From the NCBI RefSeq assembly GCF_018977255.1, contig NW_024704743.1:21206001-21270000 (forward strand): DNA of 64,000 bases, read 5' to 3'. Source of the DNA: Callorhinchus milii. Taxonomy: Eukaryota. Shown in pieces: positions 14,736 through 64,000 of this stretch (positions are counted from its first letter, which is position 1; the number at the start of each line of letters is the position of its first letter). A model generated the notes under the pieces. That model saw only the letters and a list, made by a program, of their open reading frames with translations. It did not search any database and was not told where the DNA came from. The position numbers and the translations under genes were made by a program.

Positions 14736-15409
14736 TTACAGAATTGAGTGAGGCCTTTGCACTATGAAGAAGGAAGGAAATCTAAGGTGGTTGGTTTGTG
14801 TAGTCTGGGCAGGGTGCATCTGTGCAGGTGTTAGACGTACCAATGGGGGGCAAACAACAATAATTTCTCTTTGTCTAAACTAATTCTGATCATATTGAAG
14901 CGGGACTACGTTTGTCAGAGGCCTTTGGCATTGCTGTCTTCTATGGATTTCATGTCCAAACCTATTGCGTTGTTTGTGTATGAGATCACAGCAAAAATGA
15001 TGCATGATTTTTCATGCTCCCTGGCACGGATGGCGTCTCTTTCAGTTTGTTTTCTTGTCAGTCAGTTTTTTAAGAAAATATGAATTTTATAAATTTATTT
15101 CCCATCATGTTTTCTCCTCCATCTTTCTCTCCATTCCTCCTCTCTGAAAGCATTTAAATCCTTTATCCTTCTATTGACCTGCAGATCCTCGGGTGCTGGG
15201 TGCTCCCCAGACGTTACCCAAATTACCTTTATTCTTGTGTGAGCATTACCAGTGATTGTCGGAAGGCTATTTAACCATGGGATAAAGGGGGCATCACAGC
15301 AGTCCTCAATCCTGCCTTCACCCAATATATTTGTGCGCACATCTTCCAACACAGGTCTGCCAATTTGCAACGCAGGTGTAAATTTGTTGTTGCTGTTGTT
15401 GTTATTTTG

Positions 15410-15710
15410 CGAATTCAAGATCCTCATCCTCACCTACAAGGCCATTCACGGCCTTGCTCCCTCCTACCTCTCCGACCTACTATCCCCCTACTTACTCCTT
15501 CAAGGCCGGTCTCAAGACCTTTCTCTTCGACCGTGCCTTCAGCTCCCCTCTCGACTCTCTACCCCCTCCTTGCTCCCTCCCTTCCCTCCCCTCACCCTGA
15601 CCATTTCCCCCCGCTCGGGTCCTGACCCAACTGTACAGCGCCTTGGGACGTCCTCCCGACGTGAAAGGCGCTCTATAAATGAAATCTTGTTGTTCTTGTT
15701 GTTGTTGTTG
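15410..15710 (+). mobile_element. Young L2 LINE 3' end with internal deletion
   Basis: EFKILILTYKAIHGLAPSYLSDLLSPY; CpG-rich tail CAGCGCCTTGGGACGTCCTCCCGACGTGAAAGGCGCT; (TTG)n end. Confidence 0.92.
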
Positions 15711-24126: not shown

Positions 24127-24850
24127 AAACAACAACTTGCTCTTATATAGTGCCCGCCACGCAGGGTAGAGTCTCAGAGCGCTTAACAATGGCAGAGCCT
24201 GACTCTGAACAGAGGGTGGGGAGGTGGCGGTAAACACAGCTGAAGAGTTTTCAGATGGGACTTGGAAAAGGGGAGAGGGGGGCAAGGTGGAGGGATTGAG
24301 GGAGAGTGTTCCAGAGTTTTGGGTTGAGGTGGCTGAAAGCACGACCTCCAATGGTGGGATGAAGGGTGCGAGGGACAAGCAGGAGGCCGGTGCCAGTCGA
24401 ACGGAGGCGCTGGGTGGTGGATTGGGGAGTGAGGAGGTCAGTGAGGTGGGGAGGTGCCAGAGAGTGAATGGATTTGAACACAAGTGTGAGGATCTTAAAG
24501 TCGATCCGTTTGGTGGAGTGGAGTCTGGCCAGAACTGGTGAGATGTGGATACGGAGTTTGGTCCGCTTAAGTATGCGGGAGGCAGAGTTCTGAATGAGCT
24601 GGATCTTTTGAATAGTGGAGCTGGGGAGACCGGCGAGAGGTGCGTTGGGGTAATTCAAACGCATGCACGAGGGTTTAGGCTACATTTGGGGTAAGGTACA
24701 GTCATAGGTGGGCAATGTAGCAGAAGTGGAAGATAGTAGTCCTGCTCAGGGATCGGATTTGGGGGAGGAAGGTCAGCTGGGGGTCGAACCGGCCGCCTAG
24801 ATTGAGCACTAGTTTGGTGAGTCTGAGGGAGAGCCCAGGGAGGTTGTAAA
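24127..24850 (-). mobile_element. L2 LINE, 5'-truncated ORF2 C-terminus and tail
   Basis: ORF 24251..24664 RLNYPNAPLAGLP...IQLIQNSASRIL...HISPVLARLH...IDFKIL...GGRAFS. Confidence 0.92.
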
Positions 24851-43349: not shown

Positions 43350-45550
43350 TAACATAACATAACATGTAGGAGCAGGAGTAGGCCATTCGGCCCTTCGAGC
43401 CTGCCCCGCCATTCAATCATGGCTAATCTTCTAATCTAACTCCAGCTAATAACCTAACCCTGCCTTATCCCCATATCCCTTAATCCCTTTTGCAATAAGA
43501 AATCTATCTATCTCAGTCTTGAATATGTTCAAGGACTGAGTGTCAACAGCCCTTTGGGGTAGTGAGTTCCATACATTCACCACCCTTTGAGTGAAAAAGT
43601 TCTTCCTCAATTCAGTGCGAAAGGGCTGGCCTCTGATTTTAAGGTTGTGACTCCTGGTTTTAGTTTCTCCAACCAGGGGAAACAATCTCCCACTATCTAC
43701 TCTATCACGCCCTTTGATGATCTTATAGGTTTCTATAAGATCCCCTCTAATTGTTCTAAATTCTAGAGAATATAGGCCCAAATTGGTCAGCCTATCCTCG
43801 TAACTCATCCCCTTCATCCCTGATACTAACCTGGTAAATCTTCGCTGCACCCCTTCCAAGGCAAGTACGTCCTTCCTTAAATGAGGAGACCAAAACTGGA
43901 CACAGTATTCCAGGTATGGTCTCACCAGGGCCCTATACAGTTGCAGCAAGACTTCCCTACTCTTATACTCTAATCCTTTCATAATGAATGCTAACATAAC
44001 ACACCTTCCTAATTGCTGCTGCGCCTGCAGACTAACTTTCTGTGATTGGTGTACAAGGACACCCAAGTCCCTCTGGACGCTAACACATTCTAATCTTTCC
44101 CCTTCTAAAAAATAACCCGCTCTACTGTTTTTGCTACCTAGGTGGATGACTTTGCACTTCCTTACATTATACTTCATCTGCCACCTACCTGCCCAATCAC
44201 CTAACCTATCTATGTCTTGCTGCATTTTTTTAATGTCGTCCTCTGTGTTGACACTTACTCCCAGTTTTGTGTCATCCACGAATTTAGATATATATTAACT
44301 TCAATGTCCTCATCTAGATCGTTGATGTAGATGGTAAATAGCTGAGGCCCAAGGACTGATCCTTGTGGCACTCCACTAATCACATCCCGCCAATCCGAAA
44401 AGGACCCGTTTATCCCTACTCTTTGTTTCCTACCCATTAACCATTCCCCAATCCATGTTAATATGCTCCCCCCAATTCCATGGGCCCTTATCTTTTGGAC
44501 TAACCTTATGTGCAGCACCTTATCGAATGCCTTCTGGAAGTCCAAATAGACCACATCCACTGATTCACCCTTATCTAGTTTACTGTAAATGTCCTCAAAA
44601 AACTCTATGAGATTTGTCAAACATGACTTCCCTTTTTTAAAGCCATGTTGACTTGGCCTAATTATATTGTGCTCCCCTAAATACCGCACTACCACATCCT
44701 TAATCAACGATTCTAAAATTTTCCTATCACTGATGTGAGACTAACTGGCCTATAGTTCCCCATCTTTTCCTTTCCACCTTTTTTAAATAGTGGTGTGACA
44801 TTTGCGATCTTCCAATCCATGGGGACTGTTCCAGAATCCAAGGAATTTTGGAAGATCAGACATAAGGCCTCCACTATCTCATAAGCTACCTCTTTTAAAA
44901 CCCTGGGATGCAAGCCATCCGGACCAGGGGATTTGTCACTTTTCAGTGCTAACAGTTTCCCTAGCACCAATTCTCTAATGAAATTTTTCTAATGAAAATT
45001 TCCCTAAGCTGTTCCCTGTCCTTATCCCCTTGGTGCATCTCTATTGTTGGCAGACTTGTTGTGTCTTCTAGGGTGAAGACAGATGCAAAGTACCCATTTA
45101 GGGACTCTGCCATGTCCTTGTCCCCCAAAAACTTTCACAATCAGACTTAATGTTCCTAGCTAGCTTACCCTCATACACCTTTTTCTCGCTCTTAATGAGT
45201 TGTTTAGTTTTATTTTGCTGGTTTCTAAAACTCTCCCAATCTTCAGATTTGCCGCTATTCTTGGCAGTTTTATAAGCCTTTTCTTTTAATTTGATGCTTT
45301 CCCTAACTGCTCTAGTTAGCCACGGATGAATTGCTTTCCCTGTGGTACTCTTATTCCGCAAGGGAATATGCGACCGCTGAGAATTTTGCACTATATCCTT
45401 AAATAATTGCCACTGTTGGTCTACATTTTCACCTCTTAATCTTATTCTCCAGTTTATTTTACCTAAATCTTTCCTCATATCTACAAAATTAGCCCTATTT
45501 AAATTCAAAATACTTGCCTCGGATTTAACTATATCCCTCTCTAACTTAAT
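43350..45550 (-). mobile_element. CR1-clade LINE, 5'-truncated 2.2 kb, ORF2 reverse transcriptase broken by frameshifts
   Basis: Collinear minus ORFs 45098..45508, 44713..44970 ([25 protein letters not shown]), 44255..44707 ([35 protein letters not shown]) and 43446..44279 (DDTKL...RPYLEYCVQFWSP); 3' UTR ends in (ATGTT)n. Confidence 0.97.
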
Positions 45551-45674
45551 CCCTCTCTAACTTAACTTAATTTAAATTCAATTAATTTTGTCATACGTGT
45601 ATACTGTTCAGTTATTTATACGATTATATCCAGGGCTTGGTAACTACCTTGATTTGTATGCATAAAAGTAAATA

Positions 45675-58781: not shown

Positions 58782-60561
58782 CAATAGAACCCCCATTATA
58801 GCGCGGTTTATTGTAACTCGAGTTCGCTTGTAGTTCGAACTATTTGTTAACCCCGTTCATCGTGCACCCTAGCGGCTCGTCAGCTCGCTTTGCAACACAG
58901 CAGCTCGTCTAAACATGACTGATTGGTCAACTTATCAAATGGTCACCATTACCATGACTTGTGTATTACACGTGCCAACAGGCAAGAAGTGATATTGATG
59001 GTGACCTAATGACTAGGAAGTCAGCCATTTTGATTTCTAGTGCTAAAAATAGCCGACTTCTGAGTCATGAGGGCATCGCCGATGTTATTTCCTTCACACT
59101 AGGCATTTGTGGCGCATAGGAAGTGGTGTTGTCATGAATCGCATGGCCTGGAAGAGTTGGCTATTTCTTTTCTCGTGTGAAAGCCCAGAAACAAACTGGC
59201 TGGATGTTTGCCTCAAATGATATTCTGTCTGTCTGTGACCAGGGCTCCCTCTAGCTTCTCGTCCTCCTTGACTTCTCCTGCCTTTGATACCTTTGACCAG
59301 TGCATCCTCCTCAACCACCTCTCCTCTCACCTTAACCTGTATGGTTGTATCCTTGAGTGGTTCAGATCCTACCTCTCACACTGTCTCCACCTTGTCTCCA
59401 CAAATGGCTTCTCCTCCAGCCCCCAAACAGTCTCGTGGGCTCTGTCCTTGGTCCTCTCCTCTTCAACTTGTACATGCTCCCTCTTGGTGACATCATCCAT
59501 GGATACAGGATCAACATCCACATGTATGCAGATGACACCCAACTCTATCTCTCTGCTTTCACCCCCGACTCTAGGACTATTGCTGTCCTGACAGAATGTC
59601 TGTCAAATATCAAGTCCTGGATGAAAGCTAACTTTCTACAGTTGAACGACAACAAGACTGAGGCTCTCCTGATTAGCTCCCGTCAGCGCCTCCACAACTC
59701 AGGCATGGGCAGCATCATCATCCATGAAGCACACTCCACCTTACTGAGCCAGTTGGAACCTTGGCTCCTTCTTTGACCCTCAACTGTCCATTCTACTCCA
59801 CATCTGTGCCGTAACCCGCTCTGCCTTCCCCCACCTTTGCGATGTTGCTTGGCTCCACCTTACTGCCTCACCCCTCAGGCCACCAAAACCCTCATCCACA
59901 GGCTCATCACATCTAGGCTCGTCTAAGCCAACTTGTTGGCCTTCCCAAACCTTCCTTCCATAAGCTGCAGATCATCCAGAACTCTACGGTTTGTATCCTC
60001 TCCCGCACCAGGCTCCAAGACCCCACCACCCCCATCCTCTCCCAGCTCCACTGGCTCCCCATTCCCCAGATGATAGGATTCAAAATGCTCGTCCTCAGCT
60101 TCAAGGCCCTCCACAGCCTTGCTCCTTCCTACCTCTGTGATCTGCTAACCCCATATCATCCAGTCCGCTTCCTCCGCTTAGCAGACTCCGGCCTGCTCCT
60201 CGTCCCCCGCCCTCCCCTCCCCCACCATTGGAGGTTGAGCCTTCAGCCTCTTTGCCCCCACCCTTTTGAACTCTATCCCACTCTATCACCTCTCTCCCTC
60301 CCTTGCCTCTTTCAAGACACGTCTCAAGACTCTCCACTTTGACTGCGCCTTCAGCCATGCTCCTACTCTCCCTGTCCTCTCTGATTCCAACACCCTGCTC
60401 GAGTCCAAATCCTGGACTGTCCAGTGCCTTGGGACATCCTCCCGACATGAAAGGCGCTATACAAATGTAATTTTGTAATATATAGTATGTGCGCACAAGC
60501 AATGAAACAGGGTTGGAAATCTTTGGTCCCTGGCCACCACCATTATAACAAATCTCTACTG
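58782..60561. mobile_element. Possible Tigger-like DNA transposon remnant enclosing an L2
   Basis: Left CAATAGAACCCCCATTATAGCG and right CATTATAACAAATCTCTACTG-TA resemble decayed Tigger-type termini. Confidence 0.4.
59245..60478 (+). mobile_element. L2 LINE, 5'-truncated, RT domain with frameshifts
   Basis: GSVLGPLLFNLYMLPLGDII...HMYADDTQLYLS...WMKANFLQLNDNKTE (ORF 59357); FKMLVLSFKALHSLAPSYL (ORF 60070); L2 tail. Confidence 0.96.
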
Positions 60562-62160: not shown

Positions 62161-62204
62161 TTTCCTTTTCTCATCAATCCGCAGTTAACTGACGAACTGC
62201 AATT

Positions 62205-62435
62205 CTATTGCCTTGCAGGAGGCAAGGGAGTGAGCGAGGCGAAGGGAATATGGGATGAAATTCCAAAGGGTGGGGGCAGAGAGGCTGAAGGCCGGACCAC
62301 CGATGGTGGGATGGGCCAGGCGGGGGATGTGGAGCAGGCCAGATTGATAGGGGTTTAGCAGGTCACAGATGTAGAAAGGGGTAAGGCCGTGGAGGATGGA
62401 GGCAGAGGAGGACAAAGCTGGAGTGATGCGGGGTA
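62205..62435 (-). mobile_element. L2 fragment
   Basis: LHGLTPFYICDLLNPY...PTIGGPAFSLSAPTLWN. Confidence 0.85.
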
Positions 62436-62600
62436 GAGGACAAGGATGGGAGCATTTTGGGGGGAAGCAGCTCAGGTCAGGGCCCAAAATTCGCATGGAG
62501 ATGCTGAAGACAGGCGGTTAGTGGGGCGTAGGTAGCCCGCAGGCCTGGCGACGGTGGGGGCTAGAGGAGACCGCACGCGCAGAGTGGGGAGAGAAGGGGC

Positions 62601-62746
62601 AACAACAACAACAACTTGGATTTTTATAGCGCCCTCCACGCCGGACGGCGTCTCAGAGCGCTTTACAGTAACGGATCCCGGGGCCGAGCCAGGGGGAGGG
62701 GGGGAGGAAGATGACCAAAGGCGTGGTCGAAAAGAAAGGTCTTCAG
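62601..62746 (-). mobile_element. Young L2 3' tail, same subfamily as 36872-37097
   Basis: Reverse complement closely matches 36958-37097; (AAC)n end. Confidence 0.9.
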
Positions 62747-62856
62747 CAGAGAGGCGGGCCTCATTATGTTATTTTCCAGGTTGCCCAGCTTACAGGGAAA
62801 AGAGAGAGGAAGGGAAGCAAGTAATAATAAAACTGTACTACACCTGATTTCAGTAG

Positions 62857-63185
62857 TTCAAAACTAACAGGCGGAAGTGACATCACGTGAGGAGTTTCAA
62901 CCATTGGTTCAGGCGGGATATTTTGAAATGGCGTCTCCGCAACTGGACTCATATCTTGGCCCTGCTGCTACCTGTCGGCTCCCACTTACTTCGCTCCCGG
63001 AGCCCGCGCTGCTGCCGCACTCACCTCCCACACTAACCTCGTGCCGGAACAGCTCGCTCGGTTTGCCCCGGCGCTGCCATGCCCGGTTACCTCCCGCCCG
63101 CCCGCCTGCCTGCTGGCTCCCAGTCGCACTCCCCAGTCCTGCTTCTCTTCTGCAACGCCTCCCGTCTGCCTGCTCGCGTCTGCAA
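62857..63185. promoter_or_regulatory. CpG island with promoter motif cluster (ETS-CRE, E-box, CCAAT, CDE/CHR, YY1)
   Basis: About 26 CpG counted in 62871-63180; GCGGAAGTGACATCAC 62871-62886, CACGTG 62884-62889, ATTGG 62903-62907, GGCGGG 62912-62917 plus 4 nt plus TTTGAA 62922-62927, AAATGGCG 62926-62933. Confidence 0.7.
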
Positions 63186-63340
63186 GGTCTATACTGTTTC
63201 TTATCAATCCCTGTGGGGTTGTGCGGGGAAACAACTTTTGCCTGGACACTGTCCTACAGGACTGCACAGAGAAGGGGCGAAGGGCACTCTGGTCTCTCTT
63301 CAAGGACGGCAAAGTCTCAAATCAGGTCAAGCTTATGGCA

Positions 63341-63659
63341 TATAATAATAATAATAATCCTTGCATTTGATATGGCGCTTTTCACGTCTTCTAGTTGTCT
63401 CAAAGCGCTTCACAGAATAGACTGTAAAGTGAATTGACCGTATATTTGGGGCGAAACGCGGCAGCCACTTGCGCACAACAGTGTCCCACAAACAGTCGTG
63501 GATTTAGGTGATCAATTTATAATTGTTTTATTTTTGAGGAATTATTATTAGGCGTGTGGAGTAAGGAAACTTGCCCAAGGTTTCGCCCTCTGCCTGGAAT
63601 TGAACTCAGGTCTCTCACTTGCAAAGCAAGTGCTCTAACCACTGAGCTACAGGACTCCA
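63341..63659 (-). mobile_element. tRNA-derived SINE, short form with long-form-type tail
   Basis: Internal segment absent; head like the young short copies; tail loop GAGACAACTAGAAGACGTG on the element strand. Confidence 0.93.
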
Positions 63660-64000
63660 CAATATAAGACCTGTGTGCAAAACAGTCCTCATTTATTGTT
63701 GTGAGCTCCTAAGGATGCAGTGAAGAGGCTTCCTCTGGCCCATTTGCAAAGTCCAGAATCAAGCAGTGAGATGGATTTGTAGCAAACGTGGGAATTGGCT
63801 GCAGGGAGCGAAGGCTCCAGACTGTCGCTAAGCCCTCTGGAGGCAAAGTCAGCTTCATAGTCGGCAAGTCTATCGTCAAGGCCTCTCGAGTGAGGACCTG
63901 GGTTAAGTGCTGAGTTAGCCTGGTAAGCGGCATTGGACTTGGAAATTGAGAACATCAAAATGGCTGTCATGTCACAAGCTATTCTGTAAAGGTCCTCCCA

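Follow-up and report, generated by a model that had tools for sequence, protein, structure and literature searches.

The mammalian G2/M promoters of the CDE/CHR type (DREAM/MMB/FOXM1-MuvB), such as those of CCNB2, CDC25C, and PLK4, are the closest described counterparts of the element reported here. In PMC4176359, the CHR is placed within 200 bp of the start and works in reverse orientation in ∼45% of genes. PMC4176359, PMC3287175, and PMC4705690 describe the CDE as optional, being a G/C-rich element four bases upstream of the CHR in 23% of CHR promoters, and assign a role in activation to the CCAAT boxes. In human promoters, CHR-like sites numbered 47,444 until a conservation filter was applied in this work, which makes sequence alone weak evidence for such a promoter. 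Another described element is the ETS-CRE composite of GABPA and CREB1 (PMC3464117 and PMC4555227), in which a second CG raises localization in housekeeping open chromatin from ∼6% to 60% (PMC3464117).

Results

The window analyzed here is a 64,000-nucleotide stretch of the Callorhinchus milii genome. A preliminary description had pointed to a compact cluster of promoter motifs near its right end, and a motif scan found every one of these motifs where it had been placed, within the 63-bp span that had been given (Table 1). The additional minus-strand TTTGAA upstream of the block was likewise present, and since this hexamer occurs 110 times in the window (59 and 51 by strand), a second CHR is unremarkable by itself.

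Table 1. Features of the locus and its flanks (window coordinates; depth ratios are not copy numbers)
Feature	Position	Strand	Remarks
Duplicated unit, ∼560 bp	62549..63107 (approximate)		Relatives align over 62549-62576, 62789-62945, and 63031-63107
High-copy SINE/LINE tail inserted into unit	62600..62752	-	One relative lacks 62577-62788
170-bp contig identical to locus	62827..62996		Seen in X1 at depth 9.5, without a counterpart in X6
Second CHR hexamer TTTGAA	62857-62862	-	No listed substitution in the single long relative
Motif block	62871..62933	+	ETS, TGACATCA, E-box, inverted CCAAT, GGCGGG, CHR, YY1
ETS site GCGGAAGTG	62871-78	+	
bZIP-type octamer TGACATCA	62878-85	+	
TCACGTGA	starts 62883	+	E-box at 62884-89
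ATTGG (inverted CCAAT)	62903-07	+	
Best-conserved core (CCAAT, CDE, CHR, YY1)	62903..62938		Common to other genomic copies; likeness ends ∼62935-62945
GGCGGG (GC-rich CDE candidate)	62912-17	+	
CHR hexamer TTTGAA	62922-27	+	Spacer ATAT after GGCGGG
YY1 site AAATGGCG	62926-33	+	
Triple of 5' splice-site-like sequences	62984..63040	-	63037, 63024, 62989
Donor GAG/GTTAGT	63038/63037	-	Closes 43-nt coding stretch from ATG 63080
Candidate first exon (3' part)	63038..63107	-	ATG 63080, 43 coding nt (MAAPGQTERAVPAR, phase 1)
Middle-copy repeat	63220..63342		As many as 25-28 contigs, at depths reaching ∼110-130 times that of the locus's own
tRNA-headed SINE	63343..63661	-	tRNA match 63590-63652; apparent 6-bp target-site duplication ATATAA

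The block unites 7 of the 11 motif classes of our panel within one 84-bp window, and fewer than four classes come together anywhere else in the 64 kb. Dinucleotide shuffles of 62200-63340 never reached five classes (0/1000) and at best gave four (17/1000), a test that is inflated because the panel was fixed after the claim of the cluster had been read. A GC box 4 to 5 nt ahead of TTTGAA occurs once in the window on either strand and arose in 4 of 1000 shuffles. The ∼330-bp patch that holds the block (62861-63190) has a GC content of 0.62 and a CpG observed/expected ratio of 0.87 versus 0.385 for the window; adjacent SINE pieces are about equally CpG rich (0.77 to 0.91). The TATA class is absent from 62857-62940 in the panel scan.

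By sequence, the block resembles a CDE/CHR promoter in its canonical TTTGAA, its close CCAAT box, its lack of a TATA box, and its CpG richness. If the CDE is taken in its earlier five-letter form, 5 nt would separate it from the CHR. Counted as PMC4176359 defines it, GGCGGG ends 4 nt upstream of the CHR. The block has one CCAAT box, whereas the cyclin B2 promoter has three, spaced ∼33 bp apart (PMC3287175). It differs further from CDE/CHR promoters in being present in several copies and in that the nearest exon probably lies upstream of its core and in the opposite orientation; the candidate minus-strand ATG is ∼155 bp from the CHR, the contigs giving no start sites. The first 10 bases, CGGAAGTGAC, correspond to the ETS-CRE composite, and 10 of the 11 bases match the 11-mer CGGAAGTGACG of PMC3464117 and PMC4555227, the second of its two CGs being missing. 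The octamer TGACATCA is identical to a Jun-TRE-type bZIP site (PMC2441799); it is a candidate binding site, retained by those relatives whose contigs span it.

Contigs of four runs were aligned to 62520-63345 at 80% likeness. X2 and X3 are DNA-like; X1 and X6, both from one study, are RNA-like by guess. The stretch was present in 5 of the 12 listed runs, and none of these five is recorded as RNA. The locus's own contig has a depth of 5.6 in X2 and 7.5 in X3 and is the sole cover of 62968-63023 and 63136-63219. Over 62884-62939, depth in X2 and X3 rises to 165 to 188 against that of this contig; here as in all the ratios reported, depth should not be equated with the number of copies, nor a contig with a locus. 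An A-to-G difference at 62900 is carried by six non-self contigs in X2 and in X3 at single-copy-like depth, while one deep contig (115.5 in X2 and 98.5 in X3) reaches 13 to 21 times that depth. The deep contig aligns over ∼62874-62935, and its listed differences comprise one substitution and three small indels. For comparison, the SINE tail within the unit, which served as an internal control, has a depth of ∼700,000. The block is therefore low-copy repeated, below the copy levels of SINEs and LINEs, and not single copy, and the preliminary description had itself named a multi-copy segment as refuting its reading; six diverged contigs and the deep contig carry it.

The relatives also outline what was copied. 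The alignment of a 711-bp contig (X3 record 23) spans 62799-62937 and contains 23 differences and a single gap, one relative joins 62576 directly to 62789 in both X2 and X3 and lacks 62577-62788, the SINE tail included, and another joins 62938 to 63031 in X3. These contigs and joints place the block in a low-copy family whose members have a common unit of ∼560 bp.

Two side observations concern individual contigs. The deep contig is a near-identical motif block that X2 and X3 contain and that X1 and X6 lack; a young element or a tandem array may account for it. In X2, the contig of the locus itself differs at 62837-62838 and has 11 gap positions, which probably reflects an indel polymorphism immediately to the left of the motifs.

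The window is repeat rich, with 23% of it self-matching. An Rfam search gave 12 tRNA-like matches between 9153 and 63652, none of them in the block; those that were checked head a ∼320-bp SINE whose copies are ∼87 to 89% identical. A large CR1-like LINE remnant, named by eye, lies at 43446-45556 on the minus strand with frameshifted endonuclease-to-RT frames, and an L2-like remnant lies at 59000-60400 on the plus strand (RVT_1 at 59357-59773, E value of 1.4e-11), with related 3' fragments at ∼150-530, 15400-15700, 24240-24480, and 62209-62395. A Pfam search of 298 of the 332 low-repeat ORFs (≥48 amino acids) returned that RVT_1 domain as its sole match and no host exon; the scan left aside 15 minus-strand ORFs (1-9 kb), 5 in the CR1 remnant, and 14 plus-strand ORFs over two LINEs. 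The window holds no long host-like ORF and no convincing leftward exon chain, although such a search would miss exons that are short or that follow a very long first intron.

Searches close to the block gave a similar result. The six frames near it had no Pfam match at an E value of ≤10, the plus-strand frame 63191-63346 had no homolog among three candidates, 63188-63346 returned nothing usable in Atlas, and MAAPGQTERAVPAR gave a single chance match in PDB (E value of 4.7). Homology of 63661-63999 was rejected, as the two phmmer matches were both internally repetitive proteins. Exact DNA patterns had no occurrence in metagenome or viral contigs, and a literature search with five short words of the block found no related paper. 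Positions 62876-85 fit the CRE-like decamer of T-cell receptor V-beta promoters, which precedes a leader and V exon; a V-beta promoter was rejected, adjacent ORFs having no Ig-domain match.

These surroundings bear on an unlikely but serious alternative, that a transposable element of low copy number supplied the unit as its 5' or terminal promoter region (an LTR, the end of a DNA transposon, or a LINE 5' UTR that carries splice donors and an antisense promoter), with the deep contig as a young subfamily. LINE 5' UTRs carry internal and antisense promoters, and YY1 sites occur at LINE 5' ends; the block shares with them a YY1 site, CpG richness, antisense donors, and repetition. Dispersed relatives ∼83% identical to the locus alongside one much deeper, collapsed sequence would suit a transposon, as would the gene-free, repeat-rich setting and the middle-copy repeat that begins ∼280 bp to the right. 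Against this, depth does not climb steadily toward a 3' end, being high in the core and single at 62968-63023 and 63136-63219, a pattern unlike simple 5' truncation. No linked ORF2, tail, or terminus accompanies the block, and no convincing terminal repeat was found in 62300-64000. The plus-strand frame around 63220-63342 resembles, by eye, the thumb of a LINE reverse transcriptase; Pfam, phmmer, PDB, and homolog searches of 63190-64000 gave this likeness no support. The PDB search on this question in the region right of the block returned a single chance match (E value of 1.7), and the CR1 reverse transcriptase of the window gave no useful alignment with the thumb-like region. The conserved exon and donor described below, moreover, look gene-like.

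One relative matches 63031-63107 with ∼96% identity and three listed differences. By bin arithmetic and distance-to-end values, its piece starts at 63037, at the GT of a minus-strand donor, in both RNA-like runs; in X3 it starts at 63031, donor position +7. The piece has a depth of 35 in X6, where the locus's own sequence is not seen, which fits RNA. X1 and X6 leave 63108-63219 uncovered, a gap to which we attach no weight. The exon is shared with this one relative, the core with many. No joint or loose end among those listed falls at 63037, so splicing is read from a boundary. The triple of donor-like sequences within 60 bp is the sole one in the window on either strand and the window's strongest donor cluster, as scored with an approximate, self-made weight matrix. 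The same weight-matrix scan found no plus-strand donor above 3.1 in 62750-63340. Directionality was read by the general rule on U1 sites. A minus-strand donor at an RNA-like boundary suggests that the first exon runs leftward and that the motif block sits ∼100 bp inside its intron.

Some further sequences touch on transcription. The locus-identical contig of X1 suggests that the window copy may not be silent; it may also be one duplicated fragment. Within 62791-62945, an RNA-like X6 contig of another relative matches on either side of the block, up to 62829 and over 62907-62945 (depth of 9.5), so the block of that relative may be transcribed throughout. On the minus strand, a polypyrimidine run at 62789-62822 ends in GTAAG, and the next letter in the SINE-less relative completes a donor consensus; the minus strand may thus carry another short exon beyond the block in the downstream direction.

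The preliminary description had instead placed a cell-cycle-regulated gene off the right edge. The sole exon evidence favors the minus strand, and repeat DNA makes up the right flank; the orientation is probably the opposite of the one proposed. We regard as rather unlikely the alternative of an active promoter for a plus-strand cell-cycle gene with its start close to the CHR or to 63037 and an ATG at 63079, running off that edge. The order CCAAT, CDE, CHR, and YY1/ATG does suit a rightward start, and the X1 contig covers the block. In the relative, differences at 63070, 63071, and 63075 give the same ATG region a strong plus-strand Kozak context at 63079, by which a rightward start near 63037 is possible, and the sharp RNA boundary there could be that start. 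But the likeness to this relative ends 28 nt past the plus-strand ATG, the plus strand has no donor above the threshold given, and its ORFs have no Pfam match, with no homolog at an E value of ≤1 among 37 candidates for 63079-63339. Repeats occupy at least 63220-63661, the block is not single copy, and the X1 contig reaches ∼100 nt upstream of the CHR.

The differences listed for the relatives, all of which come from the same species, were compared across 62832-62937, with 62837 left out because the locus's own contig differs there. Substitutions fall at 2 of 48 motif and 13 of 58 nonmotif positions (Fisher P = 0.01), a count that rests on the listed difference rows, with 38 further rows outside it; if the eight unlisted differences of X3 record 23 all fell in motifs, P would be 1.0 and the contrast would be gone. 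The two altered motif positions are in the ETS core and the E-box. At 62873, G is replaced by A in both other contigs that cover it (X2 and X3), which removes the GGAA core. E-box position 62888 is changed in three of the four diverged contigs of X3, and the deep contig has an insertion there. Among the listed differences, none is a substitution in TGACATCA, CCAAT, GGCGGG, TTTGAA, or AAATGGCG; the deep contig has a 4-nt insertion inside the CCAAT region.

This pattern divides the promoter grammar that had been proposed: the CCAAT/CDE/CHR/YY1 core is kept in the listed rows of the relatives and, on this comparison, looks to be under selection, while the E-box and the ETS core are altered. The E-box of the window copy is probably a C-to-T product of a CpG. 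With the ETS core and the E-box altered in relatives, and with the CG restored in no listed relative, the idea of an ETS-CRE decayed by a CpG transition loses its support, and TGACATCA looks like the state of the family rather than a decayed CRE. That the cluster arose by chance in a CpG-rich duplicated segment and is functionless in every copy is very improbable: short hexamers are common, the panel was post hoc, and an 80% alignment favors whatever part is conserved, but no shuffle of the 1000 came close and, among listed rows, the long relative across the whole block differs mostly outside motifs.

Discussion

The motifs, the related copies, the pattern of listed differences, and the RNA-like boundary in a relative are direct observations. 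The account we favor, to which we give about an even chance, is that the block is a selected NF-Y/CDE/CHR/YY1 promoter core from the 5' end of a duplicated gene and that this copy is probably an orphan. The core, comprising the bZIP site, the NF-Y CCAAT box, CDE/CHR, and YY1, would belong to a gene 5' end that exists in several copies, at least one of which appears to make a spliced RNA with an exon matching 63038-63107 on the minus strand. The core would then lie within intron 1 of a leftward transcript or serve an overlapping head-to-head start.

As for function, NF-Y, a bZIP dimer, and YY1 would keep this TATA-less, CpG-rich region open. MuvB, through LIN54 on the CHR and aided by E2F4/p130 on the CDE, would repress in G0/G1 and activate in G2/M. 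Binding, the start site, and cell-cycle control are what we infer from the motifs and the boundary. The window copy itself would be an orphaned duplicate with repeats inserted on both sides; its probable orphan status, likewise inferred, follows from these repeats and from the lack of a downstream exon in our searches.

A lone and probably orphaned copy is of modest interest. If functional, the block would add cartilaginous fish to the lineages that use the CCAAT-CDE/CHR grammar. MuvB and LIN54 homologues have reportedly been found in Drosophila, so that this grammar would be expected in cartilaginous fish; a literature search found no example of a fish CDE/CHR promoter among the papers it listed. 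It is a doubtful, speculative proposal that a putative young transposon or an amplified gene or lncRNA array of ∼15 to 30 elements spreads a DREAM/MuvB-wired G2/M cassette in the holocephalan genome. Our literature search, which covered titles and the beginnings of abstracts, found no case of CHR/DREAM sites in transposons, and one combining C. milii with DREAM, CHR, or transposable elements found nothing relevant by title. The promoter core is of a known kind, and the greater value lies in its repetition in a small family, whose copies would tell a gene family from a mobile element as the carrier of a cell-cycle promoter.
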